From an uncultured Flavobacteriaceae bacterium (GTDB taxonomy: Bacteria; Bacteroidota; Bacteroidia; Flavobacteriales; Flavobacteriaceae), in assembly GCA_964631155.1 (NCBI GenBank), contig CAZVYO010000011.1:7591-71590 (forward strand): a stretch of DNA of 64,000 bases. The letters are read 5' to 3'. Within the stretch, counting starts at the first letter, position 1, and the number at the start of each line of letters is the position of its first letter. The translations under genes were made by a program, and so were the position numbers. The notes beneath the pieces are model-generated. The model saw only the letters and a list, made by a program, of their open reading frames with translations, searched no databases and was not told the DNA's origin. Shown in pieces: positions 2,709 to 52,545 of this stretch.

Positions 2709-4585
2709 GTCAAGCTTTAAACATACTGAGAAAAGTATTTGGGCATAGTCAATTCAGGCCCCAGCAGGAAGAGATCATCACAACAGTTATGGAAGATCGT
2801 GATGTTCTCGCCATTCTACCCACGGGTGGCGGAAAATCGCTCTGCTACCAGATTCCAGCATTGTGTAAAGAGGGAATCTGCATTGTGGTTTCTCCTCTCA
2901 TCGCTTTGATCAACGATCAAGTAACCCAATTGCAAAAGCGCAACGTACGAGCTGTTGGGATCACTTCTGGAATTTCAAGACAAGACCTTGATACCGTACT
3001 GGATAACTGTATCTATGGCAACTATAAATTTTTATATCTAAGTCCGGAACGTCTGGAGCAGCCGCTAGTCCAAGAGCGCATTGCGCGCATGAAAGTGAAT
3101 CTGCTCGCGGTGGATGAAGCGCATTGTATAAGTGAGTGGGGACACGATTTTAGGCCGGCCTACCTCAAAATCAATGAGATTTTCAGCTTTATAAAGAAAG
3201 CGCCGGTTATCGCAGTTACAGCAACAGCAACTTCTAAGGTGCAGGTAGATATAACGGGAAATCTCAATTTCAAAAATCCTGTGGTCTTCACCACGTCTTT
3301 TGAGCGACCTCAACTAGAATATGATCTGCAAGATACTACCGACAAGAGAAGCGCCTTGATTGATTTTTATAATAAATCGCAAGGATCTTCCATTGCTTAT
3401 GTGCGCAGTCGGAAGAATACGGCAGAGTTCAGCCAGCTTTTATCTCATAACAACATCTCATCTGGTGCGTATCACGGTGGGTTAGATCCCAAGAAAAGAA
3501 AGGATCAAGTCACAAGGTGGTTAGAAAACCGTACCCGGGTAATGGTTGCTACAAATGCCTTCGGTATGGGAATCGATAAGGCCGATGTACGCAGCGTAGT
3601 TCACCTACAGCTACCAGACAGCATTGAAAGTTACTACCAGGAAACGGGCCGTGCCGGTCGGGATGGTAAAACAGGCATTGCGAAGTTTATCTATAACGAG
3701 AACGATGTGACCCATGCGCGCAATCAGTTCATCAGAGCACTACCTACGGTAGATATTCTCAAAAAAACATATCGGCACCTGAGCAATTATCTACGCATCG
3801 CTTACGGAGAGGGTCAGGAGCATCCTTATCAACTTCCATTTGCAGACTTTTGTCGCACCTATGACTTAAATGGGATCATTACCTACAATGCATTGACAGC
3901 GCTGGATCGTTTTAATGTGATATCGCTGGATCAGAGTTACGGTAATCGATCTGTGGTACGCTTTCGCGAAAGCGGAACAAAAATCATGGACTTTACCAGT
4001 CACGATCAGGTGGCACATGCTGTAGTGCAAGCGATTTTGAGAAGCTACGGAAGCAGCCGTGAACAGAATCTTCAAATCAATTCAAAACTGATTGCCGTAA
4101 GAAGTAACACGACAGAAAAACAGGTGACAGAGGTACTGAAGCAACTGCACCAGCGGGAGCTGATCTACGCTCGTATCACGGGAACCGATCTGACGCTTCA
4201 TTACCTACAGCCGCGGGAAGATGACCGTACGGTCAACCGTTTTGCCAGGGAATTAGAGCGGTACAATGATATTAAAATTCAAAAGCTCGAGGCGATGATC
4301 GCCCTATTGGATTATCATCAATGTGTGGAGCGAGGAATTTTATCCTATTTTGGTGAACAGCTTAAAAATGACTGTGGCAGGTGCACATTTTGCAGGAACA
4401 AAAAGCCTTCTGATATCAAAAAAGCGATCAAACTTTTGATTAGTCAAGGAGAAATCAGTCTGGATGAAGTCATTATCAGAATCCCTGCGCCAAAAACTGA
4501 AATACTTACAGCTCTGCGAAAACTTACTGACGATGGTATAATCCTTAATATTGCAGGCAAAGCTTTTAGAATCAATGAAGGATAA
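2705..4585 (+). CDS. recQ: RecQ-family ATP-dependent DNA helicase
   Basis: Motifs PTGGGKSLCYQ, VDEAHCISEWGHDFRPAY, ATNAFGMGIDK, YYQETGRAGRDG and Zn-binding C..C..C. Conserved N-terminal residues (FGHSQFRPQQEEII) lie upstream of the first ATG at 2789, so the start is placed tentatively at ATA 2705. Confidence 0.9.
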   Translation: MGQALNILRKVFGHSQFRPQQEEIITTVMEDRDVLAILPTGGGKSLCYQIPALCKEGICIVVSPLIALINDQVTQLQKRNVRAVGITSGISRQDLDTVLDNCIYGNYKFLYLSPERLEQPLVQERIARMKVNLLAVDEAHCISEWGHDFRPAYLKINEIFSFIKKAPVIAVTATATSKVQVDITGNLNFKNPVVFTTSFERPQLEYDLQDTTDKRSALIDFYNKSQGSSIAYVRSRKNTAEFSQLLSHNNISSGAYHGGLDPKKRKDQVTRWLENRTRVMVATNAFGMGIDKADVRSVVHLQLPDSIESYYQETGRAGRDGKTGIAKFIYNENDVTHARNQFIRALPTVDILKKTYRHLSNYLRIAYGEGQEHPYQLPFADFCRTYDLNGIITYNALTALDRFNVISLDQSYGNRSVVRFRESGTKIMDFTSHDQVAHAVVQAILRSYGSSREQNLQINSKLIAVRSNTTEKQVTEVLKQLHQRELIYARITGTDLTLHYLQPREDDRTVNRFARELERYNDIKIQKLEAMIALLDYHQCVERGILSYFGEQLKNDCGRCTFCRNKKPSDIKKAIKLLISQGEISLDEVIIRIPAPKTEILTALRKLTDDGIILNIAGKAFRINEG

Positions 4586-37930: not shown

Positions 37931-39025
37931 ATGAAAGTCACACTCAGAGAACGAAAGAAAAACGGAAAAATAGCCCTATACCTTGACTACTATAATAAAG
38001 GCAAACGCAAGACTGAGTACCTCAGCTTGTATCTTATTCAGAATCCTAAAACGAAGAACGAGCGCAACGTCAATAAGAAAACACGCGAGTTAGCAGAAAC
38101 TATCTGGGCGCAACGACAAGTTGAAATCCAACAAGGTCAATACGGTTTTAATGATATTGAGAAACTTAAAGGTAGTTTCACAACTTATATAACCGCTCTT
38201 GCAGAAAAGAAAAATACCAGCTCTGGCAACTATGGTAATTGGTATAGTATGCTTAAACACTTTAAGGCGTATCGACCAACAGACATTACTTTTCAAGACC
38301 TTGATAAAGAGTTTGTAGAAGGCTTTAAAGATTATTTGGACAAAAAGGCAATTGGTAGAGCAAACAAACCGCTATCCCAAAACTCTAAGTATTCCTATTA
38401 CGGCAAGTTTACCGCAGCTTTAAAACAAGCAGTTGCAGATGGTATTTTAAAATCCAATCCTGCAAACGGTGTTTCACATTTCAAACAAGGCGAACCACAG
38501 CGCGAGTTCCTCACGCTGGAAGAACTTCAAAAAGCAGTAAATACAGATTGTGAATTGCCACAGCTCAAAAAGGCTTTCATATTCTCTGCGCTTACTGGTT
38601 TACGCTGGTCAGATATTGAAAAAATGAAATGGTCAGAAATACAGCATTCCAATGAAAGAGGTTACTACGTGCGTTTTAGGCAAAAGAAAACCAAAGGTGC
38701 AGAAACTCTTCCTATCTCAGACCAAGCCGTTGAATTGTTGGGCGAACGCGGTAAGGAAGATGATTTAGTTTTACCTGGCTTGCATTATAGTGCGTGGACT
38801 AATCTAAAATTACAACAATGGATGATGAATGCAGGAATAAGCAAAACAATAACGTTCCATTGCGCACGTCATACTTACGCCACTTTACAACTAACTTTAG
38901 GTACTGATATTTATACGGTTTCAAAGCTTTTAGGACATAAGGAATTGCGTACCACTCAGATTTATGCCAAGGTTATCGATGATAAAAAACGTGAAGCGTC
39001 TAACCGTATTAAACTTGATTTATAA
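37931..39025 (+). CDS. int: Tyrosine recombinase/integrase
   Basis: Arm-binding N-terminus (LYLDYY..GKRK.EYL); catalytic R (TGLRWSD), HCARH, LLGH, TQIYAK. Confidence 0.95.
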   Translation: MKVTLRERKKNGKIALYLDYYNKGKRKTEYLSLYLIQNPKTKNERNVNKKTRELAETIWAQRQVEIQQGQYGFNDIEKLKGSFTTYITALAEKKNTSSGNYGNWYSMLKHFKAYRPTDITFQDLDKEFVEGFKDYLDKKAIGRANKPLSQNSKYSYYGKFTAALKQAVADGILKSNPANGVSHFKQGEPQREFLTLEELQKAVNTDCELPQLKKAFIFSALTGLRWSDIEKMKWSEIQHSNERGYYVRFRQKKTKGAETLPISDQAVELLGERGKEDDLVLPGLHYSAWTNLKLQQWMMNAGISKTITFHCARHTYATLQLTLGTDIYTVSKLLGHKELRTTQIYAKVIDDKKREASNRIKLDL

Positions 39026-40008
39026 TGATAACAGACGTTTTCGCATCGCTTATATCAATTACCAAAGGACTGCATAGGGATAAACGAACTGACAGAGATT
39101 TCAAAGAGTTAGTCCGTAACCAAAACGTAAAACTTCAATATAAAGAAGCACCACTTTTTACAATTGAATTTGCTGAAAGGGCTTTAGGCGACAAACGCAA
39201 ATACTACAAAAACTTAATCGACCAGGAAGCCAACAAAAAATTCAATGAGATTATTTCCAGCTTTCCTACGGATGCCACCGAACCGGAACACATATTTAAC
39301 TACAAAAGGTTGTTCAGTCAGCATCACTCTAACTTTGAGCGAGTAAAAGGCTACATTGACAAGTACGAACATTCTCGAGAGTCCATCCGCAACGAGGACA
39401 CCTATATAATTCAGTATCTAAAAGCCAATATGATATGGCTGTATTTAGAGCTTCAAGAACGTTTCGGAAAATATGGCAATGAAGATATTCTCACTACAGA
39501 GGAAATCTACCAATACCACTTTGACGAAGTCTTGGACGAACTTGAAATCAAACCATCTGAAATAGGTAAATCTACAGTCAAGGAAATTACGATTGAAGCT
39601 CTATTCAACCCCATTGAAAATGACTTGTCCCACAGGCAGCCGAAGGATAAAGTAATGCCTTACAAATACATTGTTCAATATCCTAAAAGTTTAGCCAGAG
39701 CAGAACAAATGATGTTTGAAGCTGATATTATCGACAAGGATTATAATTTCATATCCAATACTAAGCGTAAAAACAAATCTGTACTTGGCATCCTCTATTT
39801 CCTGTTTATAGAGAAAGACTACTTCAACAAGGTAAAAACTGAACCTTTCAAACGGATTAAGTCAACCGACGTAGTTAGATTTCTAAATCATCGCTACAAT
39901 ACCGATGCGCGAAAGCAATTCAAAACAGCTCAGAATAAGCAAGAAGAACGGAATGACCTAATTAACTCAGAATTTATCCTCAAAAACCTACCAAATAAAA
40001 TTCGGTAA
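39025..40008 (+). CDS. Hypothetical protein coupled to the integrase
   Basis: 327-aa ORF; ATG overlaps the integrase stop (TAATG). Confidence 0.7.
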   Translation: MITDVFASLISITKGLHRDKRTDRDFKELVRNQNVKLQYKEAPLFTIEFAERALGDKRKYYKNLIDQEANKKFNEIISSFPTDATEPEHIFNYKRLFSQHHSNFERVKGYIDKYEHSRESIRNEDTYIIQYLKANMIWLYLELQERFGKYGNEDILTTEEIYQYHFDEVLDELEIKPSEIGKSTVKEITIEALFNPIENDLSHRQPKDKVMPYKYIVQYPKSLARAEQMMFEADIIDKDYNFISNTKRKNKSVLGILYFLFIEKDYFNKVKTEPFKRIKSTDVVRFLNHRYNTDARKQFKTAQNKQEERNDLINSEFILKNLPNKIR

Positions 40009-40049
40009 TACATTGGTTTAGTTCCAATTTCCATTTCCATTTATAATTG

Positions 40050-40077
40050 TAAGCCGTTGTTTTTCAACGGCTTATTT
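40050..40077 (+). terminator. Hairpin terminator flanked by TTTCCA tandem hexamers
   Basis: TAAGCCGTTG-TTTTT-CAACGGCTTA; TTTCCA repeats at ~40028-40040 and ~40081-40092. Confidence 0.6.
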
Positions 40078-40193
40078 GTGTTTCCATTTCCACAATTCGT
40101 ATCCACCCCTATTTGAAATACCTATGTACCGTCCTTGACAATCAAGGGCGACATTAGCGCTGATGTCCTTTTTCAATTTAATCCATAAAGAAA

Positions 40194-40496
40194 ATGGACT
40201 CGAATATTAAAGAACAATTAAACCGCATTGAAAAACTGCTTACAGAACAGCAGACAATGCAAAAAACGGTTCTCAATTTTAATGAAGCTTGCGCTTACTT
40301 AGAATTGTCGCAATCGCACTTGTATAAACTCACAAGTACGAGCGCAGTACCACATTACAAGCCTAACGGCAAGAAGATTTATTTCCAACGAGAGGAGCTT
40401 GACAACTGGTTGCTGCGCAACCGTATGGACTCAAGAGACGAAATCGAGCAGCAAGCTGCCGATTATCTAATCAAGAAAGGAAAGGTGCAGTTATGA
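40194..40496 (+). CDS. Excisionase-family HTH protein (HTH_17)
   Basis: VLNFNEACAYLELSQSHLYKLTS...PHYKPNGKKIYF.REEL..WL. Confidence 0.85.
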   Translation: MDSNIKEQLNRIEKLLTEQQTMQKTVLNFNEACAYLELSQSHLYKLTSTSAVPHYKPNGKKIYFQREELDNWLLRNRMDSRDEIEQQAADYLIKKGKVQL

Positions 40497-40789
40497 AAGA
40501 GATAATTGACCTTATCCTGTCGCTCTCACAGGAAATAAAAGACCTGAAAGCACGTATCGAACTCATTAGACAGTCGAGAGCTGAACTACTAAAGGATACG
40601 TGGCTTGACAATCAAGATGTGCTGCAAACCTTGCACATAAGCAAGAGAACATTACAAACCTTTCGCAAGAATGGCACTCTGCCTTACAGCAAGGTACATG
40701 GCAAATTCTACTATAAAGTTTCCGATATAGAGGAACTACTTCAGAGCAATTACTACAACCCAAATTTTAAGTGCGATGGAGTTAAGTAG
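40493..40789 (+). CDS. HTH_17 DNA-binding protein
   Basis: WLDNQDVLQTLHISKRTLQTFR.NG.LPYSK..GKFYYK. Confidence 0.85.
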   Translation: MKEIIDLILSLSQEIKDLKARIELIRQSRAELLKDTWLDNQDVLQTLHISKRTLQTFRKNGTLPYSKVHGKFYYKVSDIEELLQSNYYNPNFKCDGVK

Positions 40790-41684
40790 ACAAAACATTT
40801 TGGATAAAACACACTACGGCATAAACATTTATGCCTATGTGTTGAGACAATTCTATCCCGATACAACCGTCCTTTCCCTTTCGGGAAGGACGTGCGGGAT
40901 AACGCGCAATCCTTTTAATGCAGATAAGGAAACCTTATCGATTCGTATTGAAAAAAGTATAGCCATTCATAGCGATACTGAATACAAAAGTTTCTCAGGC
41001 GATGCCTTCGACTTTGCACAATTCTATTTTGAAACCAAAACAGAAGATGAATTACTGAGCAAGATTAACGATGCCTTGCATCTCAATCTTGCAGTTGAAG
41101 AGGAAGATGAACTTAGCTGGTTGGATGAACCGGATAACACTTGGTACACAGACTGTAGCTTTTTCAAAGCACCAGTACGTAATGTGTTTCCTTCGGAAAC
41201 CTTGCGTTTAGGCAAAATCCACCAACTGATTGTTGGTGATAAGTACAAAGCCATAACCGAGGAACTTAGGGCAATTGAGGATATTAAGGAAAAACGCAAA
41301 TTCAAAGCTAATCGCTTTGATTACGTCACTTTTTCAGGAGTGTTTGAGCGCAGAAACGATAAGTTTTTACAAAAGCATTCAAACCTTATAACGATTGATT
41401 TTGACCACTTGCAAGACTTAGAAAAAGTCAGACAGCAGCTGCTTGATGATGAATATTTCGAGACTGAAATGCTATTCATTTCGCCATCTGGCGATGGCCT
41501 AAAATGGATTGTCCGCATTGAGCTGGACGAGTTCACACATCAAGAGAACTTCTCGGCAATCACTAATTACATCAAACATACCTATAAAATTGAGGTTGAC
41601 GCATCAGGAAAAGACATTTCCAGAGCCTGTTTTTTACCGCACGATGCCAATGCCTACTTACATAAAAGACATCAATTATTATGA
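40776..41684 (+). CDS. BT4734/BF3469 family (VirE N-terminal, primase-like) protein
   Basis: FDYVTFSG.F..R, ITIDFDHL, LFISPSGDGLKWIV, DASGKDISRACFL.HD. Confidence 0.8.
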   Translation: MELSRQNILDKTHYGINIYAYVLRQFYPDTTVLSLSGRTCGITRNPFNADKETLSIRIEKSIAIHSDTEYKSFSGDAFDFAQFYFETKTEDELLSKINDALHLNLAVEEEDELSWLDEPDNTWYTDCSFFKAPVRNVFPSETLRLGKIHQLIVGDKYKAITEELRAIEDIKEKRKFKANRFDYVTFSGVFERRNDKFLQKHSNLITIDFDHLQDLEKVRQQLLDDEYFETEMLFISPSGDGLKWIVRIELDEFTHQENFSAITNYIKHTYKIEVDASGKDISRACFLPHDANAYLHKRHQLL

Positions 41685-43417
41685 AGAAGAACTTCAATCC
41701 TAAAGACTGGTTGCAACAATCCAAGGTTGTAACGCAAGCTAAAGCAACCCAAAAAACAATCGCCACGGCTGCTATCGATAACAATGATATGGAGACATAT
41801 ATCGCCGCCATTGAGCAATCTGGTACAGATATAACTGGCGATTACGCACGTTGGCGTGATATTGGTTTCGCTTTCGCGGAAGCTTACAATGAACAAGGCA
41901 GGGATTATTACCATAGGATAAGTCGCAACTATCCCGGTTATGACCAAAAGGAATGTGACGAGCAATACACTAAATGCCTAAATGCCAAAGGTCACGGTAT
42001 TACGGTGGCAACATTCTATCATTATGCACATCAAGCAGGGATAAAACCGCAACGGCCACAACCAGAGGTTGCAACCTTGCCAGTTGTAGAAGCAACCAAA
42101 GAGCAACTTCCTACGTTTCCTGATAATCTTTACGACACGATACCTGATTTTCTCAAACTGGTCATTATGCCAGCAAATGGTAATGAGGAAAGAGATATAA
42201 TGTTATTGGGAGCGCTAACTGCTTTTAGTGCCTGTTTCCCTAATCTCTTTGGCATTTATGATGAGCGTAGAATGTATAGCAATTTATACCTATTCGTTAC
42301 TGCACCTGCAAGCGCAGGAAAAGGAAAGCTCAACCAAATCAAAAAGTTGGTCGCACCTATTCACAAACTACACCGTGAACAAGCCAAAACACTTAAACAG
42401 CAATACGAGAGTGAACTTGCCACTTACAATATGAACAAGGGCAAGAATGAAAACCTTGAAAAGCCTGGTAAACCGCCAGAACGTATGCTGTTTATTCCTG
42501 CCAACAATAGTACAACTGGAGTGTATCAATTGGTTGCAGATAATGAAGGACGCGGATTGATGTTTGAAACCGAAGGCGATACGCTCGCACAAGCCTTTAA
42601 AAGTGATTACGGTAATTATAGCGATGGGTTCCGCAAAGCATTCCATCACGAGACCATAAGCTATTACCGCAGGACAGACCGTGAATATGTAGATATTGAA
42701 ATGCCTTGTTTGAGCACCGTACTTTCTGGCACGCCTAAACAAATTTCAACCCTTGTTCCCAATGCAGAAAACGGCTTGTTCAGCCGTTTCATATTCTACT
42801 ATATGAACATCAAACCAGTTTGGAAAGATGTGTTTGCCAAACGTGCTAAAGTTGGTTTAGAAGAACATTATGAGCAACTCGGTAAAGATTTTTTAGGACT
42901 ATACAGAACGCTCAAAAATAATCCACCTATTGAAGTGACGCTTTCGCGAAAGCAACAACAGCAATTCAATGAGTTCTTTGCAGCCTTGCAAACCAAATAC
43001 ATCAACCTACAACCTGAAGAATACATTGCGACGGTTAGACGCTTAGGCTTAATTGCATTTCGCTTCGCGATGCTCTTTACAGCCTTACGCATTATGGAAG
43101 ATGGCGATGTCAACGCTACCAAGCAATGTGAGGACGTAGATTTTGACAATGCGCTGGCAATGATTCAGGTATTGGTAAAACACAGCAGTAAGGTGTTCAA
43201 CGATTTACCTATGGAGCCAAAGGCTCAAAAACGGCTTAATAAAAAGGAACGATTTTTAGAAAAGCTACCTGACAAATTCGACCGACAGCAATATCTAAAA
43301 ACCGCTGATGAACTTGCTATCCCACATAAGACTGCTGAAGGTTATGTTACTGGTTTTGTCAAGTCTGGTTTGATTCACAGGGACAAGCATAATGAGTATA
43401 TAAAGCCCAGTCAGTAG
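41681..43417 (+). CDS. PriCT-2 + DUF3987 domain protein (replication/primase-associated P-loop)
   Basis: YARWRDIGFAFA...YYHRIS...Y...ECDEQY (PriCT-2-like); APASAGKG; ETEGDTL; LSGTPKQ; ENGLFSRF. Confidence 0.75.
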   Translation: MKKNFNPKDWLQQSKVVTQAKATQKTIATAAIDNNDMETYIAAIEQSGTDITGDYARWRDIGFAFAEAYNEQGRDYYHRISRNYPGYDQKECDEQYTKCLNAKGHGITVATFYHYAHQAGIKPQRPQPEVATLPVVEATKEQLPTFPDNLYDTIPDFLKLVIMPANGNEERDIMLLGALTAFSACFPNLFGIYDERRMYSNLYLFVTAPASAGKGKLNQIKKLVAPIHKLHREQAKTLKQQYESELATYNMNKGKNENLEKPGKPPERMLFIPANNSTTGVYQLVADNEGRGLMFETEGDTLAQAFKSDYGNYSDGFRKAFHHETISYYRRTDREYVDIEMPCLSTVLSGTPKQISTLVPNAENGLFSRFIFYYMNIKPVWKDVFAKRAKVGLEEHYEQLGKDFLGLYRTLKNNPPIEVTLSRKQQQQFNEFFAALQTKYINLQPEEYIATVRRLGLIAFRFAMLFTALRIMEDGDVNATKQCEDVDFDNALAMIQVLVKHSSKVFNDLPMEPKAQKRLNKKERFLEKLPDKFDRQQYLKTADELAIPHKTAEGYVTGFVKSGLIHRDKHNEYIKPSQ

Positions 43418-43422
43418 CTAAG

Positions 43423-45060
43423 TTACTTTCTGGGTTTCCTTTCCTTCAACTTAGTCTTAGGATGTTTAATTGCCCGATGAAAATTAAGCTCAAAGCGTCG
43501 TGTTTGTTTCCTAATGGTACTTCGCCCGCCGTTTAAGGGTTTCATTACCTCATTCGCTTTCATCAAGTAACTAAAGTAATTACCCCAATCATAACGTTTT
43601 TCAGGATCCTTTTTAAACTTGTTCAGATTATCAGGATCAGGTATTCGTTTTAGACGTCGTTTTCCACCTAAAAAGGTAAAACGCTTTATAAGTCTATTTT
43701 TAAACAAGCCCTTTTCACGGTGATGCGCCTTGCTTGCATAATACTTACCGCGTTTGATACTTCGTATCATACTGCGGTAATATTTTGATATACCTTGAGT
43801 CTTTACATAAACCTGGGAACCGGTATATTCAAAACCCAGGTATTCCAACTGATTATTTTTAGAATAACCATCAGTGCCTTCGGCGATACCACCTTCAAGG
43901 CCGTTACCTTGACGGTGATACCTATAAACTTGTGTTTTCTCAGGATGTATTACCAGCTTGCACTTAGTAGGATGAGCAATCTCAGCTCTAAGAAACTTAA
44001 TTGTTTCCGTTTCTTTATCTCGAGGGCATACGATAATGAGATCATCACTATAGCGCTGATAAAATCCATCATAAGCCTTCGTATATTCATACAAGGCTTC
44101 ATCAAAATCGAGCATATAAATATTGGCCAGTACGGCACTCATTGGACTGCCTTGCGGTATGCCCTTTGGTGAAAAACTACTCTTGTAAGTTCCATCGCTA
44201 CGCTCACCACGACGTTTGGACTTTACGAGATGTAGATGGTTTCTAAAAAAGTCTTTTTTGGTGCAAAAAGCAATAACCCTTTCTCGTCTAAAATTACGTC
44301 GCTTAGCGACTCGTTTTTGTTTCCACTCTATTTCATCGGGACGATTAGGCTTGTTACGCTCTACCCAGATGCTATCATAGCAAGCATTATGCAACTCATT
44401 AAGCTTTACGTACCGCTTTTTAGTCAATGATCTATACACATTATAATGATCATCAGGCATACGTAGCTGTCCTTGCTCATCGCGACAATTTAAAACGCGT
44501 TTCCATTGCCTATGTAATATTTTGTGATCCAGCTCATCAAAAAAGCTCGATACATCAGCAACAATGACACTCACTTCATTTTCATCTATTCGATTTAAGG
44601 CTTGAAAGGCATCAAACGCAAACTCAATATTTGATTTGTTCCCCTTCTGTCCTTTGTCTTTCCTTATCTTACGATAGGCAACCGCACAATGGTTAAAGGG
44701 CTTATGCCTCAAATACCACTCATAATGAACGCTCAATACATAGCTGTAGTAACTATAGATCAAGGAATCAAAATGACTGGCGTAGTATAAGGGACGGTCT
44801 TTAGGTGGCTTTTTTTCTACCCTAACCCTTTTACCGTACTCATTTTTCTCATACTTAAGTGAACCATCTTCCTGTGGCTTTTTCTCAGCAGCGCGATACT
44901 TGCGTTGTATGATAGAACGCTTAATAAGAGGTGTGAAACGGTGCTTGACGATTTTCTTTGGATTGGTCACATAAGGTACAACCCAACTCTTATCCTTTGG
45001 TTGGAGAGGTAGCCCGATATGAGCATATCGTTTAAGTTTAAACCATCTTTTAACTGCCAT
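43423..45060 (-). CDS. Defence-associated reverse transcriptase, DRT2 (UG2)-like
   Basis: RT motifs DVSSFFDELDH, GIPQGSPMSAVLANIYM, YQRYSDD, LEYLGF. The N-terminal WFK.K.Y.H, YV..P.KI.KH.F.P, RP..YASH.DS.IY and KSNIEFA blocks match my recollection of Klebsiella DRT2. No maturase X/En domain or intron flanks. Confidence 0.8.
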   Translation of the reverse strand: MAVKRWFKLKRYAHIGLPLQPKDKSWVVPYVTNPKKIVKHRFTPLIKRSIIQRKYRAAEKKPQEDGSLKYEKNEYGKRVRVEKKPPKDRPLYYASHFDSLIYSYYSYVLSVHYEWYLRHKPFNHCAVAYRKIRKDKGQKGNKSNIEFAFDAFQALNRIDENEVSVIVADVSSFFDELDHKILHRQWKRVLNCRDEQGQLRMPDDHYNVYRSLTKKRYVKLNELHNACYDSIWVERNKPNRPDEIEWKQKRVAKRRNFRRERVIAFCTKKDFFRNHLHLVKSKRRGERSDGTYKSSFSPKGIPQGSPMSAVLANIYMLDFDEALYEYTKAYDGFYQRYSDDLIIVCPRDKETETIKFLRAEIAHPTKCKLVIHPEKTQVYRYHRQGNGLEGGIAEGTDGYSKNNQLEYLGFEYTGSQVYVKTQGISKYYRSMIRSIKRGKYYASKAHHREKGLFKNRLIKRFTFLGGKRRLKRIPDPDNLNKFKKDPEKRYDWGNYFSYLMKANEVMKPLNGGRSTIRKQTRRFELNFHRAIKHPKTKLKERKPRK

Positions 45061-45075
45061 TCATAAATTAAAAAA

Positions 45076-45422
45076 AGAGCCGGCCGAGACTAAAATTGTC
45101 GCTTTTCATTTAAGTAAGGCAGTACATCGGCTTGCTGTTTTCGTTAGATAACTACTTACAGCGTCCCTCTATATTTAGAATACTTATTGCTATAGGTATA
45201 TTAGATATACTAATAAATAAAGCATCAACAGATATGACACATTTACTCATCAACAGCATTGTAAAGACCTTAATGGAATACCTCATATCTTCTTTAACGG
45301 GAAGATATGGCAGGTTCCACTTTGGAATGTACAATCAAACCACGGACCGCCCGTGGCTGGATGTAGACCTGTACTTCTACAGACCTACCAGAAATAAACG
45401 TACTTACCAGCTAACCGGCTCT
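45076..45422 (-). ncRNA. Putative DRT-associated ncRNA (~347 nt)
   Basis: Ends pair (AGAGCCGG 45076-83 / CCGGCTCT 45415-22). Hairpins at 45083-131, 45134-162, 45284-309, 45315-327, 45340-356 and 45362-381 surround an AT-rich, hairpin-poor 121-nt core (45163-283). A U7 tract follows the terminal stem, then the RT ATG. Confidence 0.75.
45165..45284 (+). other. Candidate cDNA repeat unit encoding a 40-aa Neo-like peptide
   Basis: Only one + frame is open across the core: PSIFRILIAIGILDILINKASTDMTHLLINSIVKTLMEYL (120 nt, in-frame ATGs at 45234 and 45273). Exact junction is inferred. Confidence 0.5.
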
Positions 45423-45425
45423 CAG

Positions 45426-45433
45426 CAAAGCTA
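45426..45433 (-). promoter_or_regulatory. -7 promoter element for the ncRNA-RT transcript
   Basis: TAGCTTTG on the - strand is a perfect TAnnTTTG, a few nt upstream of the predicted ncRNA 5' end. No clear -33 box. Confidence 0.6.
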
Positions 45434-45616
45434 CTCGATTTAAAATCAAATCGTTTTAGTTTTATTAACATTCTCACAGCTTATCATTTCCCTTACTTCC
45501 CCAATTCCTGATGTCATCGCATCGAGGTAACTTGTTTTCTGTTAATATCTTTTTCTTAGCCCTTTCTTGCTTTTGATTATTTTAGACAAAAATTGACAAG
45601 TCTAAATATCCCTAAT

Positions 45617-45907
45617 ATGCGGTTTGGTGAATACCTCAGGCAGTTACGTGAAGAACAAAATCTCTTACTCAGGGAAGTTTCTGCACAACTTAAAATGGAT
45701 ATGGCCTACATCAGTAAGATAGAACGTGGTACTCGCAAGGCCAGAAAGGAACAGGTTACCGCTTTTGCGAAAGCTTATAACGTAAAAAGCACCGAATTAC
45801 AAAAACGCTGGCTTGTAGACCAGATTAAGGAATTACTTAAAAACGAAAAAGACCCTATTGCCATATTAAAGGCTACAGAATCAACAATTGACAACGATAC
45901 GATTTAA
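45617..45907 (+). CDS. XRE-family HTH regulator (possible R-M controller)
   Basis: FGEYLRQLREEQNLLLREVSAQLKMDMAYISKIERG.R; immediately upstream of the R-M genes. Confidence 0.85.
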   Translation: MRFGEYLRQLREEQNLLLREVSAQLKMDMAYISKIERGTRKARKEQVTAFAKAYNVKSTELQKRWLVDQIKELLKNEKDPIAILKATESTIDNDTI

Positions 45908-45911
45908 AAAT

Positions 45912-47990
45912 ATGACCTTAACAGAACTATTAAAAGACTCAAATTACAAACTCACCCAATTTCAGGATGGTGACTATATTGAGAGATTTGAGCCTACTAT
46001 CTTTGTGAAAGAAGTCCGCGGTAAAGCAACACCTTATGTAAAATGTTTGGTGAGAAAGAAAGACATTAAGCTTACACCTGAAGAAGCGGTAAGACAACTG
46101 TACCTGATGGTTCTCTCTGAAAAATACAATTACCCACTTGATAGAATGCAGGTGGAGTATCCTGTCAATTTTGGACGACAGGTTAAGCGAGCTGACATTG
46201 TGGTATTTGATAAAATAGACCCACGCGCTATCTACCTAATGGTAGAAATGAAAAAACCTAAACTTAAAGATGGTAAAGAGCAATTAAAAAGTTATTGTAA
46301 TGCAACCGGAGCACCCATAGGTATCTGGAGTAATGGTGATTCCATATCCTATTATCACAGAAAAGACCCCAATTACTTTGAGGATATATCAGCGATTCCA
46401 ACGGCAAATGAAAAGCTGTCGGACATACTATCCGAACGATGGACTATTGATGATCTCATCAAAAAAGACAAGCTTGTAACCGAGAAAAAGTCGCTTAAGG
46501 ATCTAATCCTTGAAATGGAAGATGAAGTGCTTGCTAATGCTGGTGTTGATGTTTTTGAAGAACTTTTTAAACTCATTTTCACCAAACTCTATGACGAGAT
46601 GGAAAGCGGGCGTAACAGAACACGACATCTTGTTTTTAGAAATTACGGTGACACAGAAAGCGAACTCAAGCTTAAAATCCAAAATCTTTTTGACTGGGCA
46701 AATCGCAAATGGGATGGTGTTTTTACTAAGGATGCCAAGATTATGCTCACCCCATCTCACTTGTCAGTATGTGTTTCATCGCTGCAAGATGTAAAACTCT
46801 TCAATTCAAACCTTGATGTGGTAGATGAAGCTTTTGAGTATCTTATAAACAAGAGCAGCAAAGGTGAAAAGGGACAATATTTTACACCACGCTATGTAAT
46901 TGATATGTGTGTAAAAATGCTCAACCCTCAAGCCTCAGAAACGGTAATGGATACTGCGGCAGGTAGTTGTGGATTTCCTGTTCACGCTATTTTTCACGTT
47001 TGGGAACAGATACTTAAAGAAAAAGGTATCCCAAAAAGCCATCTTTTTACTACGGAAGAAAAGCCAATTGAGTGCATCGACTACGTTCAAAACAATGTGT
47101 TCGCCATTGACTTTGATGAAAAGGCAGTAAGAGTTGCACGTACCCTAAACCTTATCGCAGGTGATGGACAAACTAACGTTCTACACCTTAATACGCTCGA
47201 TTACGAGCGCTGGGATGAAAAGACAGAAGACACAAATTGGCAAGACACCTATTTTACAGGTTGGAAGAATCTGAGGAAACACAGAAAAAACAACGACTCT
47301 AACCGTGATTTCAAATTTGATGTGTTGATGGCAAATCCACCATTTGCGGGTGACATCAAAGAAAGTAGAATATTGGCTAAGTATGAGCTGGGTAAAAAGC
47401 CTAATGGAAAGTACCAGACTAAAGTAGGTCGTGATATTCTATTTATAGAACGCAACCTGGACTTTCTCGCACCTGGCGGGCGTATGGCAGTAGTACTACC
47501 GCAAGGTCGCTTTAACAACAGCAGCGATAAAAATATACGGGATTACATCGCAGAGCATTGCAGGATATTGGCAGTAGTAGGCTTGCACGGTAACGTATTT
47601 AAACCACATACAGGCACAAAAACCAGCGTACTGTTTGTTCAAAAATGGGATGATGAGCTTTGCCCACGTCAAGATGACTACCCCATTTTCTTCGCCACGA
47701 TGCAAGAACCCAGCAAGGATAATAGCGGTGAAAAGATTTTTGTTAAGAAAAGCGAATTTCCAAGAGCCAAAACAGTCCATAAAGATGCTGATGATGACCG
47801 CGTGGCAGAACCTGTGGATCATTATGATGAAGGACCTAAAAATCTGGATGAATACCTACTGGATACGCACGGGCATTTGATTGTAAAACACGACTTGTTT
47901 AATCACGATGGCTTGACTAAGGATGGGATTGCAGAAGCCTTCATCGAGTTTGCCAAAAAAGAAGAACTCTCATTTGTGGGAAAGGCCTAA
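45912..47990 (+). CDS. Fused restriction endonuclease-N6-adenine methyltransferase (HsdR_N-like nuclease + HsdM-like MTase)
   Basis: N-terminal PEE.VRQ...RADIVVF...VEMKK (PD-(D/E)xK); GQYFTPR; DTAAGSCGF (motif I); ANPPF (motif IV). Confidence 0.85.
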   Translation: MTLTELLKDSNYKLTQFQDGDYIERFEPTIFVKEVRGKATPYVKCLVRKKDIKLTPEEAVRQLYLMVLSEKYNYPLDRMQVEYPVNFGRQVKRADIVVFDKIDPRAIYLMVEMKKPKLKDGKEQLKSYCNATGAPIGIWSNGDSISYYHRKDPNYFEDISAIPTANEKLSDILSERWTIDDLIKKDKLVTEKKSLKDLILEMEDEVLANAGVDVFEELFKLIFTKLYDEMESGRNRTRHLVFRNYGDTESELKLKIQNLFDWANRKWDGVFTKDAKIMLTPSHLSVCVSSLQDVKLFNSNLDVVDEAFEYLINKSSKGEKGQYFTPRYVIDMCVKMLNPQASETVMDTAAGSCGFPVHAIFHVWEQILKEKGIPKSHLFTTEEKPIECIDYVQNNVFAIDFDEKAVRVARTLNLIAGDGQTNVLHLNTLDYERWDEKTEDTNWQDTYFTGWKNLRKHRKNNDSNRDFKFDVLMANPPFAGDIKESRILAKYELGKKPNGKYQTKVGRDILFIERNLDFLAPGGRMAVVLPQGRFNNSSDKNIRDYIAEHCRILAVVGLHGNVFKPHTGTKTSVLFVQKWDDELCPRQDDYPIFFATMQEPSKDNSGEKIFVKKSEFPRAKTVHKDADDDRVAEPVDHYDEGPKNLDEYLLDTHGHLIVKHDLFNHDGLTKDGIAEAFIEFAKKEELSFVGKA

Positions 47991-48019
47991 GCCCTTTTAA
48001 TGAATCCCATTATAGGGAA

Positions 48020-49438
48020 TTGTTAGAAGGGCTGGAAATTAGTGAAGTCAGTTTATCAGCTTTAGAATTTAGTTCAAGATTAGATAGTGAGTATTATCGA
48101 CCATCTTTATTAGAATATGAAAGAATAATTAGTTCTCAATCAAATTCTAACCTGTCAGAATTATCAGATTTCCTGATTGGACCTTTTGGTTCTGCATTTA
48201 CCGTAGATAAGTATACAAATGTAGAAGATTATAGATATATCAGAGGTAAAGATGTCAAACCATTGAAACTTAAGGATGATGACAACGTATTTATGCCAGA
48301 AGAGGACTACTACAGATTAGAAAAATATGCTTTACGCGAAAATGATATTTTGGTTACCGTAGTAGGAACATTAGGGAATGCAGCTTTAGTTACAAAAAAA
48401 GACTTACCTGCGATATTCAGTTGCAAAAGTACAGTACTACGGCCTTTCAATATTAATCCAGTCTATCTACTCACCTATATTAATTCAAAATATGGTCGCG
48501 AATTGTTACTCAGGAAAGAACGAGGCGCGATTCAAAAAGGTTTTAATCTTGGTGATCTTGAAAATTTAGAAATATTCTTACCATCAGAAGATTTTCAATT
48601 AAAAATTGAAAATTTATTTAAAAAATCCTTTTCTAATACAGAACGATCAAAAGCACTTTATTCCGAAGCCGAAACCCTTCTACTCAAAGAAATAGGTTTA
48701 AACGAATTTACACCCAACACAGATGGTATCAATATAAAAAGCCTATCCAGCAGCTTTGCCACTTCAGGCAGGCTCGATGCAGAGTATTACCAGCCGAAAT
48801 ATGATGATGTGATGGAAAAGGTCATCTCTCAGCCCTATGACTTGCTGTCCAACATCGTGAGTATAAAAAAATCCATAGAGCCAGGATCTAAAAATTACGT
48901 TGATGAAGATGGGTTACCGTTTATGAGAGTAGCCGATTATTCAAAATTTGGAATGACGGTCCCACAAAAGAGCCTTTCTCAAGAATATGTAAAAGAGAAT
49001 CAAAAAAAGATTAATAAACTAAAGCCTAAAGCTGGAACAATTTTGTTTTCGAAAGATGGTAGCGTGGGTACAGCTTATCATCTACGTAAAGATTTCGAAG
49101 GCATAACGTCAGGAGCCATATTACATCTTAACGTTAAGGATAAAAATAAAATCATACCAGAGTATCTCACTCTGGCTCTTAATTCTCAAGTAGTACAAAT
49201 GCAGGCTGAAAGAGACGCAGGTGGGTCGATCATTTTACATTGGCGCTTATCAGAGATTGAAAACGTAGTTGTTCCAATTATTGACTTGGATATACAAAAG
49301 CAGATTGCTGCATTAATAGAAGAGAGCTTTGCTCTAAAAAAGCAAAGCGAGCAGTTATTAGAAACCGCAAAGCGAGCTGTGGAAACAGCTATTGAGCAGG
49401 ACGAAGCGTCTGCCTTAAAACTTATAGATAATGAGTAA
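48020..49438 (+). CDS. Restriction-modification specificity (HsdS-like) subunit, two TRDs
   Basis: RLDSEYY/RLDAEYY repeats, DILVTVVGTLG, TILFSKDGSVG, conserved P...Q..I helical spacers. Confidence 0.85.
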   Translation: MLEGLEISEVSLSALEFSSRLDSEYYRPSLLEYERIISSQSNSNLSELSDFLIGPFGSAFTVDKYTNVEDYRYIRGKDVKPLKLKDDDNVFMPEEDYYRLEKYALRENDILVTVVGTLGNAALVTKKDLPAIFSCKSTVLRPFNINPVYLLTYINSKYGRELLLRKERGAIQKGFNLGDLENLEIFLPSEDFQLKIENLFKKSFSNTERSKALYSEAETLLLKEIGLNEFTPNTDGINIKSLSSSFATSGRLDAEYYQPKYDDVMEKVISQPYDLLSNIVSIKKSIEPGSKNYVDEDGLPFMRVADYSKFGMTVPQKSLSQEYVKENQKKINKLKPKAGTILFSKDGSVGTAYHLRKDFEGITSGAILHLNVKDKNKIIPEYLTLALNSQVVQMQAERDAGGSIILHWRLSEIENVVVPIIDLDIQKQIAALIEESFALKKQSEQLLETAKRAVETAIEQDEASALKLIDNE

Positions 49439-50438
49439 AGATAACCTACCCCAAGAAAGCGAGTTCTTAATGTATACTACACCGCAAGGTGAGGTAAAAC
49501 TCAATGTGCTCATTCTTGATGAAACTGTATGGCTCACTCAAGAAGGTATGCAAGAACTCTTCGGTCGGGCAAAATCGACGATCAGTGAGCATATCAGCAA
49601 TGTATTTGATGAAGGTGAATTAGATCGTGATTCAGTTGTTCGGGATTTCCGAACAACTGCCAGCGACGGTAAAATCTACAACACGTCTTTCTATAACCTC
49701 GATGTCATCATATCCGTTGGCTACCGTGTGAAATCCTTACGTGGTACACAATTCCGTATTTGGGCTACAAAAACCTTACGTGAATATATCATTAAAGGTT
49801 TTGCGATAGACGATGACCGGTTAAAACAAGCGCAAGGTACTTTTGGTAAAGACTATTTCCGTGAGTTGCTCGAGCGAGTTCAATCCATTCGTGCAAGTGA
49901 GCAACGCATCTACCATCAGGTTACGCAAATCTTTGCAGAGTGCAGCATCGATTACGACCCAAAAAGCCAGATTACCAAAAACTTTTATGCGATGGTGCAA
50001 AACAAATTTCATTACGCGATCACAGGTCAGACCGCGGCAGAAATAATACATAAACGTGCGGACCGCAAAAAGCCGCAAATGGGGCTTACCACTTTTAATA
50101 ACGCCCCAGAAGGTCGCATTTTAAAAACAGATGCCAAAATCGCGAAAAATTACCTTCAGGCTGATGAAATTAGAGAGCTGGAGCGCAACGTATCGGGCTA
50201 TTTTGATTACATAGAAAATCTCATTAAGCGCCGCAACACATTTACTATGCAGGGTCTGGCAACCAGCGTAGATAAATTTCTAAATTTCAATGAATATCAA
50301 ATTTTAGAAGGAAAAGGTCGTATTTCAAACAAACAAGCTATTGCCAAAGCAAACAAGGAATATGACGCCTTCAACAAAACACAAAAAATCTTGTCAGATT
50401 TTGACAAGCATTTAAAAAACAAAAAAAATCTTTCATAG
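49431..50438 (+). CDS. RhuM family protein
   Basis: ETVWLTQ..M.ELFG, YNLDVIISVGYRVKS.RGTQFRIWAT..LREYIIKGF..DD.RLK, RIRASE. Confidence 0.9.
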   Translation: MSKDNLPQESEFLMYTTPQGEVKLNVLILDETVWLTQEGMQELFGRAKSTISEHISNVFDEGELDRDSVVRDFRTTASDGKIYNTSFYNLDVIISVGYRVKSLRGTQFRIWATKTLREYIIKGFAIDDDRLKQAQGTFGKDYFRELLERVQSIRASEQRIYHQVTQIFAECSIDYDPKSQITKNFYAMVQNKFHYAITGQTAAEIIHKRADRKKPQMGLTTFNNAPEGRILKTDAKIAKNYLQADEIRELERNVSGYFDYIENLIKRRNTFTMQGLATSVDKFLNFNEYQILEGKGRISNKQAIAKANKEYDAFNKTQKILSDFDKHLKNKKNLS

Positions 50439-50466
50439 AAAGATCGTACGAATTAATTAACGGCAT

Positions 50467-52545
50467 ATGAAATTAGACCATTTATATTCATTAAGACGAA
50501 GCTTTACAGTTATTGGACTCACAGGAAGAACAGGTTCAGGATGTACAACAATGGCAACATTGTTATCAGGTTCTTATTCAACTCTTCAAAAAAAAGGTCT
50601 TCGAAATTTTACCAAAGAGAAAAACAAAGATGATCTTTTCTTAAGAAAATACCACATTGTCAAACAATTTGTGTCTACAGGTGATAATTGGATACCATTT
50701 GATGTAATCAGTTACAAAAACGTAATCTTACTTTATCTATTTAATAAGTATGGTGGTAATTATTATAAATTTCGTCGTTTGTTGAATGATTTTTATAGGG
50801 AATCTAAAAAAGAAAATAACACAGCTATCGCTAAAAGAGTTTCTGAAAAAATCATTGAAATTCACGTAAAGTACTCAGGCCTAATCGACAAAATAAAATC
50901 TTTAGAAAATATTGGATCTATTAAGAATCCAGACGATTTACTACTTCTAAATGAGATTTTTTTCGGGAAGCCATTCAAAAAGTTCAGTAAAGAAATATTC
51001 TCTGCTTTACAGTCCGAAGGCTATTATCGAAGAACCAATTTTTTACATCATATCGCTTGTAATATCAGGCAATCTGGGGATCCTCGTGTACCAACTGGAA
51101 AAACAGTTGAGAATATATACCAGATTGCTAATACCATCAATCGCATCATAAAGGCGAGAAAGCTGGCAAACGCCTCAAAGCCTACTAAGATTGTGATTGA
51201 TTCTTTAAGAAACTCTTTGGAAATTATGTTTTTTAGGGAACGTTATTCAGCATTTTATATGCTTGCCACAAAGGACGTAATGGAAAACTCAAAAGAGCGT
51301 ATCTTGATGAGACTGCCCAAAAATATTAAGGATGAATCAAAACGCAATGAGTTAGCAGATAGACTACTTGAATTGGACGAAACCGAGTACAAAACAAAAG
51401 ACTTCTCAAAAGGAATTTTTTCATCGCCTGACGTTGAAAATTGCATTCAAAAAAGCGATTATCATATTCTTAATTTAAAAAAAGAAGCAGTTGACGAATT
51501 TGTCAAAAAGTATGATCCACCATATCTCAAATTAAATTTTCTAACACGGGAAGAACAGCTACTTAAATTGGTTGCTTTAATCTCACAACCGGGATTAATA
51601 ACACCAAGTTCAGTTGAGCGATCTATGCAGGTTGCAAACTCGGCTAAACTAAATTCAGGTTGTATCTCAAGAAACGTAGGAGCCGCAATTACAGACGGAT
51701 CATTTCACGTTAAATCCATAGGTTGGAATGATGTAGCTAAAGGACATACACCTTGCAATCTTCGAGAAGTCCAAGACTTGATAAGTCCATCCTCAAAAAA
51801 ATGGCTTGATGAAACAAAACATTATAGTCCCTTCGAAAAAGGAAATGTATCCCAGAAATCGTCCTTTAAGTATAAGAACGAGAAGCCAGGCAATTTCAAG
51901 GAAGCCTTAACTGATTATTTTAGTGAACCATTAAATGAAAAGAAAGAAGATTTAAATGGTAAAAATTGTGCTTTTTGTTTTAAAACTGTTCATAATCATT
52001 ATGAAGGTGAAGCCAATCAAGTGCATACAAGATCTCTTCACGCAGAAGAAAATGCAATGCTTCAAATAACAAAACTCGGTGGACAAGGTGTAAATGGTGG
52101 TATCTTATTTACAACGGCCAGTCCCTGTGAATTATGCTCAAAAAAGGCATATCAATTAGGTATTGAGACAATATACTTTATAGATCCATATCCAGGAATT
52201 TCGAATGATCAAATACTAAAAGGAGGCCAAGAACGCACACAACCTAAAATGATTCCATTTTCTGGGGCAATCGGTATAGCCTATCACAAGTGCTACGATT
52301 CGTTTATGTCATATAAAGATGAAATTTCTATGACCCTTGAAATCAAAACCGATAATAAAGTTGGTATTCAGTTTAAGGAACTTCTTAAAACTTTGAAAGG
52401 AAAGGATCAAAGAATTGCAGATCTACTATCAAAGCAAGAGAAGTTCTCAGATGAAGATGTAATCAAACTTTTGACTGATGCTTTAAAGTCTAAGGAAGAA
52501 ATTATCTCAGATACTACCAATAATTTGAAACAACAGAATAAGTAA
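50467..52545 (+). CDS. Anti-phage dCTP deaminase (AvcD/Dcd-like: P-loop kinase-like + deaminase)
   Basis: IGLTGRTGSGCTT, IDSLRN..E, S.C.SR.VGA.I, GWNDV, LHAEENA, ASPCELC. Confidence 0.85.
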   Translation: MKLDHLYSLRRSFTVIGLTGRTGSGCTTMATLLSGSYSTLQKKGLRNFTKEKNKDDLFLRKYHIVKQFVSTGDNWIPFDVISYKNVILLYLFNKYGGNYYKFRRLLNDFYRESKKENNTAIAKRVSEKIIEIHVKYSGLIDKIKSLENIGSIKNPDDLLLLNEIFFGKPFKKFSKEIFSALQSEGYYRRTNFLHHIACNIRQSGDPRVPTGKTVENIYQIANTINRIIKARKLANASKPTKIVIDSLRNSLEIMFFRERYSAFYMLATKDVMENSKERILMRLPKNIKDESKRNELADRLLELDETEYKTKDFSKGIFSSPDVENCIQKSDYHILNLKKEAVDEFVKKYDPPYLKLNFLTREEQLLKLVALISQPGLITPSSVERSMQVANSAKLNSGCISRNVGAAITDGSFHVKSIGWNDVAKGHTPCNLREVQDLISPSSKKWLDETKHYSPFEKGNVSQKSSFKYKNEKPGNFKEALTDYFSEPLNEKKEDLNGKNCAFCFKTVHNHYEGEANQVHTRSLHAEENAMLQITKLGGQGVNGGILFTTASPCELCSKKAYQLGIETIYFIDPYPGISNDQILKGGQERTQPKMIPFSGAIGIAYHKCYDSFMSYKDEISMTLEIKTDNKVGIQFKELLKTLKGKDQRIADLLSKQEKFSDEDVIKLLTDALKSKEEIISDTTNNLKQQNK

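Follow-up and report, generated by a model that had tools for sequence, protein, structure and literature searches.

A DRT2 locus of a Bacteroidota clade predicted to assemble a Neo-type gene by head-to-tail copying of its non-coding RNA

The stretch of DNA analysed here (the window; 64,000 nucleotides (nt), positions 7,591 to 71,590 of contig CAZVYO010000011.1, assembly GCA_964631155.1, from an uncultured Flavobacteriaceae bacterium) carries a reverse transcriptase (RT) gene of the DRT2 family and, upstream of it on the same minus strand, a structured non-coding RNA (ncRNA). Judged from sequence, this defence system comes from a DRT2 clade specific to Bacteroidota and most probably works like the DRT2 of Klebsiella pneumoniae, making a Neo-type gene by head-to-tail copying of a segment of the ncRNA. 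The features that point to this are the family of the RT, the conserved and structured ncRNA, a pair of co-varying motifs, repeat units whose length is divisible by three, a reading frame that stays open across the junction and, at the level of the clade, a promoter and an ATG at that junction. The initial annotation had proposed a divergent Bacteroidota Neo-type gene at this place; more than 100 related loci strongly support this central inference, although the boundaries of the unit, its length and the promoter given for it proved to be wrong. The strand had been chosen correctly, as neo is antisense to the ncRNA in known DRT2 systems (PMC12039810; 10.1101/2024.05.08.593200).

The RT gene (43423-45060, minus strand) encodes a full-length protein of 545 amino acids with the catalytic motif YSDD, as identified with PADLOC, Pfam, the Protein Data Bank (PDB) and an alignment of homologues. 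The protein scores E=5.6e-129 against the Drt2 model of PADLOC, with the second family, RT_UG17, reaching only 3e-24, and it also matches Pfam RVT_1. Its top match in the PDB is the RT of K. pneumoniae DRT2 (9c0i, E=2.6e-45), with RYSDD of the window protein aligned to RYCDD, and it can be aligned from end to end with its homologues. By these matches the RT is a member of the UG2/DRT2 clade with an intact YxDD motif. The list of open reading frames (ORFs) and Pfam show no gene for a SLATT protein or another effector among the neighbours of the RT.

In the DRT2 of K. pneumoniae, a 120-nt template within a 280-nt ncRNA lies between two motifs (ACA-1, ACA-2) and is copied head-to-tail by template jumping; the unit lengths of the known systems are divisible by three, and the -35 and -10 boxes of the neo promoter meet only at the junction of two copies (PMC12039810; 10.1101/2024.05.08.593200). 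The corresponding motifs in the window are M1 (AUUCC, 45324-45328, minus strand), which lies inside the template in the position of ACA-1, and M2 (AUUCU, 45177-45181, minus strand), which lies immediately 3' of the template in the position of ACA-2 and is the predicted jump acceptor. Each was placed by its co-variation with the other, and M1 also by comparison with a Vibrio locus from Table S1 of Tang et al. (10.1101/2024.05.08.593200), where ACA-1 and ACA-2 sit as M1 and M2 do relative to a -35-like box and a conserved ...UGA..GCGGC scaffold. The two motifs are 147 nt apart and delimit a predicted neo repeat unit of 147 nt, or 49 codons (45182-45328, plus strand, which is the sense of the complementary DNA (cDNA); codons from 45183), the concatemer of which is free of stops. 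The repeat reads LIAIGILDILINKASTDMTHLLINSIVKTLMEYLISSLTGRYGRFHFGI and, when read from its ATG, MTHLLINSIVKTLMEYLISSLTGRYGRFHFGILIAIGILDILINKASTD. The homology extends beyond the motifs themselves: in the sense of the ncRNA, ATTCCAAAG and ATTCTAAAT are identical in 7 of 9 positions, with a C/U difference that permits a G-U pair, and the cDNA end CTTTGGAAT could pair with M2 across eight positions, one G-U pair included.

These limits differ from those of the initial annotation, which had set the unit at 45165-45284 (40 codons, 120 nt), between two hairpins, and had been unable to locate a jump homology of the ACA type at 120 nt. That unit is arbitrary; the homology exists at a distance of 147 nt and is of the AUUC type, and the template does not coincide with the interval that separates the hairpins; it includes the second of them (hairpin 2, described below). 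Separately, an ACA/TGT pair at 102 nt (45260 and 45362) was considered as a pair of jump motifs and rejected, no such pair being conserved in relatives.

With the RT as query, 80 related loci were found in genome assemblies (30-79% identity, almost all from Bacteroidota), and a further 80 were taken from metagenomes. When the upstream regions are aligned, conserved blocks of scaffold are seen on either side of a variable centre that has M1 and M2 at its edges. In nearly all of the 80 genome loci the antisense strand carries an open frame of at least ~200 nt, at a constant distance from the RT. Both motifs are recognisable in 109 loci, comprising 62 from genomes and 47 from metagenomes, the latter being non-redundant and chosen by the presence of the motifs alone, with length ignored. 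The motifs co-vary by subclade: AUUC is paired with AUUC, AUAC with AUAC and, in locus L017, UUUC with UUUC (TTTCC and TTTCT), with AAUU in a distant group (group C). ATTCC at M1 together with ATTCT at M2 is found in the clade of the window and in the largest clade, and ATACC at both places in another clade.

The distance from M1 to M2, computed on the full sequences, is a multiple of three in 62 of 62 genome loci, with lengths of 126, 129, 132, 135, 138, 141, 144, 147, 150, 153 and 156 nt. The distance is likewise a multiple of three in all 47 metagenome loci, every one of which is open in the same frame; besides the 11 lengths, the 109 loci include one double unit of 258 nt. A concatemer of the unit is stop-free in the same single frame in 109/109 loci; among shuffled units, the control for the 62 genome loci, only 9% have any open frame, and 17 of the 62 units are open in the sense of the ncRNA. 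Because the loci are related, changes in length were counted instead of loci, which is the conservative count, and the chance that 10 or more independent insertions or deletions (indels) would all be multiples of three is ~1e-5 or less. The initial annotation had suggested an alignment of homologues as a check on the open frame and on the divisibility of the unit length, and both hold throughout the loci with recognisable motifs.

Within the subclade of the window the units are 147 nt long in the window itself, 153 nt in L001, 141 nt in L002 and L003 and 150 nt in L082, all divisible by three and all open; the template indels of this subclade are without exception multiples of three, and a 1-nt indel is found just outside the template. 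Group C, a distant Flavobacterium clade, has the motifs AATT[T/C]C and AATTAC and a unit of 162 nt, which is open in 9 of 10 loci. An unbiased search for any direct repeat of at least 4 nt with a spacing divisible by three and an open concatemer was too permissive to resolve divergent loci. In about 20 more distant homologues (L064-L080, with L069, L073 and L076 from Psychrobacter and Acinetobacter), some of them from Proteobacteria, M1 and M2 could not be placed.

The promoter consensus of Bacteroidota consists of a -33 box, TTTG or TTG, and a -7 box, TAnnTTTG. When the units are joined, the pattern TTTG/TTG, N19-20, TAnnTTT[GA] is formed across the junction in at least 45 of the 62 genome loci, an undercount that stems from tie-breaking in the script, and it occurs in 0 of the 62 unjoined genomic contexts. 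An in-frame ATG is present downstream of the -7 box in 62/62 loci. An example of such a junction is ...TTTGtgaaattggaat joined to AAGATTCGTAACTTTG.

In the window, the predicted head-to-tail junction joins ...CTTTGGAAT to ACTTATTGC, or, around the promoter, cacTTTGgaat to ACTTATTGCTATAGGTATATTAG. The -33 box TTTG (45321-45324, plus strand), which belongs to the 3' end of the unit, is placed upstream of the -7 box TATATTAG (45197-45204, plus strand) solely by this join, at a distance of 19 nt; the -7 box has 5 of the 6 specified positions of TAnnTTTG. The unjoined chromosome has TTTA (45174-45177) in place of TTTG, which corresponds exactly to the C/U difference that distinguishes M1 from M2. 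The window-type junction sequence has 0 matches in the window itself. The predicted neo start codon is the ATG at 45234-45236 (plus strand), which is in frame, lies 29 nt past the -7 box and is preceded by an A-rich leader; the ATGACACATTTACTCAT block around it is conserved in the subclade of the window. This ATG had been noted in the initial annotation, together with a second in-frame ATG at 45273 and the stops in the other two frames, all of which are present. The promoter candidate given there, TATATTTA at 45170-45177, falls outside the unit, in the flank at M2. Since the -7 box of the window is identical in L082 and less clear in L001 and L002, the putative promoter of the window itself is regarded as moderately supported.

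A different form of junction is seen in a Flavobacteriaceae subclade (L042, L045, L047, L048, L052, L054 and relatives), where the boxes can be read equally well as TTGACA-N17-TATATT, which is sigma-70-like. The TTGACA box of this subclade is read in frame as (L/F)-D, as it is in the Neo units of Vibrio and K. pneumoniae (…GLDNL); the shared frame relation could reflect common ancestry or be coincidental.

The ncRNA is ~353 nt long (~45422 to 45070, minus strand; predicted ends) and is encoded upstream of the RT. From 5' to 3' it consists of a 5' scaffold, the template, a 3' scaffold and a U-run, and conserved blocks of the region are kept upstream of the RT in 160 loci. The minimum free energy of its fold is -99.5 kcal/mol (z=-3.6). 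A single global MAFFT alignment with RNAalifold across all subclades gave no structure, with the subclade of the window misaligned in the 3' part, and consensus structures were taken from folds made per subclade. The consensus for the subclade of the window comprises 106 pairs, 22 of them with compensatory changes (RNAalifold); these cover the terminal stem, two 5' hairpins and both hairpins of the initial annotation. An Rfam scan of 43000-46500 found no family for the ncRNA, its sole match being a spurious one to CrcZ (E=0.53).

The terminal stem of 10 base pairs (bp) is formed by the 5' arm AGAGCCGGUU (45413-45422, minus strand; RNAfold) and the 3' arm GGCCGGCUCU (45076-45085, minus strand; RNAfold and RNAalifold), and two of its pairs show compensatory changes by RNAalifold. 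The U-run follows at 45070-45076, with the start codon of the RT 10 nt further. Hairpin 1 (45134-45162, minus strand) has a 5-bp stem in the 3' scaffold, in which GCTGT (45134-45138) pairs with ACAGC (45158-45162); a GC pair becomes AU in L002 and L003, and the counterpart of the helix in the main clade is GTTGC/GCAAC. Hairpin 2 (45284-45309, minus strand) lies within the template and has a 9-bp stem of CATATCTTC (45284-45292) and GAAGATATG (45301-45309), with compensatory changes in two pairs. Both hairpins were correctly recognised in the initial annotation, and both are kept with compensatory changes in relatives, while the stretch between them, which was said to be without a hairpin, contains AU-rich helices as predicted by folding. 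The ncRNA appears to have a promoter of its own, read from the sequence, with the -7 box TAGCTTTG (45426-45433, minus strand) fitting TAnnTTTG. This box recurs at the same place in L001 and L082 (both TAGATTTG) and in L002 (TATATTTG); no well-spaced -33 box was seen for the ncRNA promoter.

From these elements we infer a course of events at the locus that would comprise cDNA synthesis, triggering by phage, transcription, translation and toxicity. The RT would bind the ncRNA encoded just upstream and copy the 147-nt template, starting just 5' of M2 (AUUCU) and proceeding back to M1 (AUUCC). The 3' end of the cDNA (...CTTTGGAAT) could then re-pair with M2 (AUUCUAAAU), upon which copying would restart, and this rolling-circle reverse transcription would yield a head-to-tail cDNA. 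After second-strand synthesis, each junction would carry the -33 box TTTG 19 nt upstream of the -7 box TATATTAG and act as a promoter of the Bacteroidota type. Transcripts would begin before the ATG at 45234 and contain no in-frame stop, and translation would give an endless hydrophobic Neo-like protein with a 49-residue repeat, presumably arresting the infected cell.

Two relatives contain possible traces of the joined product. The metagenome contig L085 (831-1092) has an exact tandem of 2.0 copies, 100% identical, of a 129-nt unit, the boundaries of which are precisely at M1 and M2, with ATTCC as the internal motif; the sister contig L083, otherwise identical, has one copy. A scan of the genome collection with a junction-only pattern, ATTGGAATNRRDTTYGTAWCTTTR, gave 17 matches, of which 16 are promoter-like sites with no RT nearby, mostly in Bacteroidota genomes (L161-L177) and several with an ATG ~10-40 nt on; the junction therefore resembles the ordinary strong promoters of Bacteroidota. 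The remaining match, L173 (3001-3585), is an array of clustered regularly interspaced short palindromic repeats (CRISPR) next to cas1 and cas2, in which a 47-nt repeat occurs at least 8 times. Its second spacer, AGATTGGAATAAAGTTCGTATCTTTACTA (3125-3153), agrees in 29 of 29 positions with the junction predicted for the DRT2 unit of L022, and L173 and L022 are from the same metagenome-assembled genome, Weeksellaceae EA14-03. Against the unjoined chromosome this spacer matches in only 24 of 29 positions. For the other spacers of the array the match is 12-20 of 30. The two halves of the second spacer are 100 nt apart and in reversed order on the chromosome, and this spacer must therefore derive from joined DNA. 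This suggests that Cas1-Cas2 captured concatemeric DRT2 cDNA in EA14-03.

Several observations weigh against a Neo-type gene made by concatenation at this locus. Both junction traces come from the main clade, in which the RT is ~46% identical, and not from the subclade of the window; the spacer is a single case, and the tandem in L085 may reflect a true duplication in the genome, an artefact of assembly or concatemer reads folded into the assembly. Scans of the genome collection with a left-weighted junction pattern of the main clade and with the junction pattern of the AUACC clade gave 8 and 9 chance matches, respectively, and nothing more, and the window-type junction has 0 matches in viral contigs. 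The junction promoter of the window is imperfect, with 5/6 positions in the -7 box, and is poorly conserved in L001, L002 and L003. The open frame of the window overruns the unit on both sides, and the window sequence alone is compatible with a conventional ORF of 70-103 amino acids. Lastly, locus L059 of group C has a 5-nt insertion (a duplicated TTTAA-like sequence) ~280 nt upstream of the RT, which lengthens the unit from 162 to 167 nt and disrupts the frame. No other frame-broken unit was seen among ~120 loci, and L059 is either a decayed locus or the product of a sequencing error.

The insertion in L059 is also among the points that would fit the first of three alternatives, namely that the locus has the Neo design and is inactive in this genome, as a decaying cargo gene of an integrated element. 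The position of the locus in a mobile-element and defence region and the imperfect -7 box of the window agree with such a decay; however, the RT is of full length with an intact catalytic motif, no damage is seen in the helices of the ncRNA, in M1 or M2, in the frame or in the ATG, and we consider inactivity unlikely.

It is conceivable, with a slimmer chance, that the effector is the DNA made by the RT, as for DRT10 or DRT9, and that the open frame is a by-product. Other class 2 DRTs are reported to make non-coding repeat or homopolymer DNA (PMC12632851, PMC12483538), and the RT has the weak secondary match (3e-24) to RT_UG17 of PADLOC. The repeat, however, has the properties of a coding sequence. 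In 6 of 6 length groups the predicted frame has the largest synonymous fraction among codons that differ by a single nucleotide (0.28-0.33, versus 0.08-0.28 for the other frames), and codon position 2 is the most conserved in 5 of 6. The repeat proteins have a mean grand average of hydropathy (GRAVY) of +0.98, whereas shuffles give +0.06 and the other two frames -0.67 and -0.07; T occupies codon position 2 in 46% of codons, and the unit of the window has a GRAVY of +0.76. A Pfam search with three-repeat Neo proteins gave no match above the curated thresholds, and the Neo of K. pneumoniae is likewise without a known domain (PMC12039810; 10.1101/2024.05.08.593200). Besides the synonymous excess and the strong hydrophobicity, which are found in that frame only, the conserved ATG, the junction promoter, the rule of three across 11 or more unit lengths and a same frame that is stop-free in 109/109 loci all speak against a by-product, as does the lack of a SLATT or other effector gene beside the RT.

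The open genomic frame that overruns the unit has 109 sense codons and a stop (45114-45443, stop at 45441-45443, plus strand; from the ORF list). It translates as ...PSIFRILIAIGILDILINKASTDMTHLLINSIVKTLMEYL..., as the initial annotation had it. By an estimate from base composition at 37% G+C, 40 open codons have a chance of ~0.06 per frame, which is not beyond chance, and 109 open codons one of ~4e-4, which is unusual. That a unit of 120 nt joins without a stop, as had been pointed out in the initial annotation, is trivial, since any piece of this frame with a length divisible by three does so. The overhangs are not conserved, and in relatives the in-frame stops lie 1-142 nt past the end of the unit and 26-110 nt before its start. 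There is hardly any chance, even with a frame that is open for 109 codons and listed as an ORF of 103 amino acids, that this is an ordinary small antisense gene, running from the ATG at 45234 or the TTG at 45132 to the stop at 45441-45443 and transcribed divergently from the chromosome with no concatenation, as conservation does not extend to those stretches of the frame that lie beyond the unit, the promoter pattern that would provide a chromosomal -33 box occurs in 0/62 unjoined contexts, the product has no Pfam family, and such a gene leaves unexplained the constant 3n spacing of the co-varying repeats and the frame that is open across the join.

The DRT2 locus has mobile-element genes on one side. 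The region 37931-43417 of the window contains a tyrosine integrase (37931-39025), a DUF6617 protein, two HTH_17 excisionase-like genes, a BT4734-like protein and a DUF3987/PriCT-2 primase; taken together, these genes resemble the core of an integrated mobile element that carries the DRT2 system as cargo. Beyond the ncRNA, the region 45593-52545 begins with a helix-turn-helix gene, followed by a type I restriction-modification set (N6_Mtase/HSDR_N, 45888-47990; specificity subunit, 48020-49438; RhuM, 49431-50438) and a protein of 692 amino acids with a cytidine deaminase domain (50467-52545). This region looks like a defence island.

Gene-building from an ncRNA is so far known experimentally only from DRT2 systems near that of K. 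pneumoniae. Tang et al. (10.1101/2024.05.08.593200) describe the annotation of Neo outside the K. pneumoniae clade as 'more challenging' and raise other mechanisms as possible; some predictions of neo in other clades are indicated in their Fig. S6, and none of the Bacteroidota names searched for occurs among 295 of the Neo-positive rows of their Table S1. Among the texts searched, none describes Neo in Bacteroidota. A 2026 preprint (10.64898/2026.09.22.753630) mentions DRT2 and Bacteroidota, and a term count for it gives 'neo' 0 times. The comparison of loci presented here indicates that the logic of Neo holds in Bacteroidota with different parts, insofar as sequence comparison can tell. It also provides rules for annotation, consisting of co-varying motifs of the AUUC, AUAC or AAUU type, a 3n spacing, an open frame across the join and TTG-N19-20-TAnnTTTG over the join. 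Since the type of promoter tracks the sigma factor of the host, these loci are a natural test of the idea of a junction promoter.

The spacer and the tandem copy suggest in addition that concatemeric cDNA is detectable in existing public data, which would make the natural activity of DRT2 directly testable. A wider reading, plausible though falling a little short of probable, is that gene synthesis by reverse transcription is not confined to the proteobacterial clade of K. pneumoniae and is an old, phylum-spanning design tuned to the host through the jump motif, the length of the unit and, most of all, the promoter, which would have changed from the sigma-70 to the Bacteroidota type, and that, as the junction-spanning spacer of EA14-03 hints, wild cells contain enough of the double-stranded concatemer for Cas1-Cas2 to sample it. 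If this is true, two defence systems are linked, and CRISPR arrays and metagenome assemblies hold a searchable fossil record of DRT2 activity.

Among known systems, the junction promoters of insertion sequence circles and tandems are similar in having the -35/-33 box at one end and the -10/-7 box at the other, functional only when the ends are joined, an analogy that is drawn in both DRT2 papers (PMC12039810; 10.1101/2024.05.08.593200). They differ in that the ends are joined by a transposase, whereas the join in the window is predicted to arise by reverse transcription with template jumping. Retrons share with the window locus a defence RT and a cis-encoded ncRNA that serves as scaffold and template; they make a single-copy msDNA and have a separate effector protein, in contrast with the window, which has no effector gene and in which the product is predicted to be a gene.

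DRT10 (UG17) is closer, having a class 2 UG RT and an ncRNA template from which tandem DNA is made by repeated copying; it differs in being protein-primed, in its short telomere-like repeats and in its SLATT effector (PMC12632851). The unit of the window is long, coding and promoter-bearing, there is no SLATT gene, and the UG17 model scores far below Drt2. Membership of DRT10 was rejected on the basis of these scores (RT_UG17 3e-24 against Drt2 5.6e-129), the lack of a SLATT-like neighbour and the long coding unit.

The closest counterpart is the DRT2/Neo system of K. pneumoniae, from which the window differs mainly in its components. The RT has 545 amino acids here and 425 there, the two being distant (E=2.6e-45). 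For the jump, the loci compared here have AUUCY, or else AUACC or AAUU, which would pair over 5-8 nt, where K. pneumoniae has ACA; the units are of 126-162 nt (147 nt in the window) against 111-129 nt; and the junction promoter is -33 TTTG / -7 TAnnTTTG with N19-20, compared with the sigma-70 type TTGACA-N17-TATAAT. There is no Shine-Dalgarno-like site here, and the Neo sequences are unrelated. The architecture is the same. In each locus, one RT gene of the UG2 family has a structured ncRNA upstream of it in the same orientation, and the central template of this ncRNA is delimited by two copies of a short direct repeat, the first of them within the template. The unit length is divisible by three, one frame of the cDNA sense is stop-free across the join, and the two parts of the promoter, situated at opposite ends of the unit, come together only when units are joined and are followed by a start codon. 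The product, which for the window is a prediction, is a hydrophobic repeat protein with no known domain.

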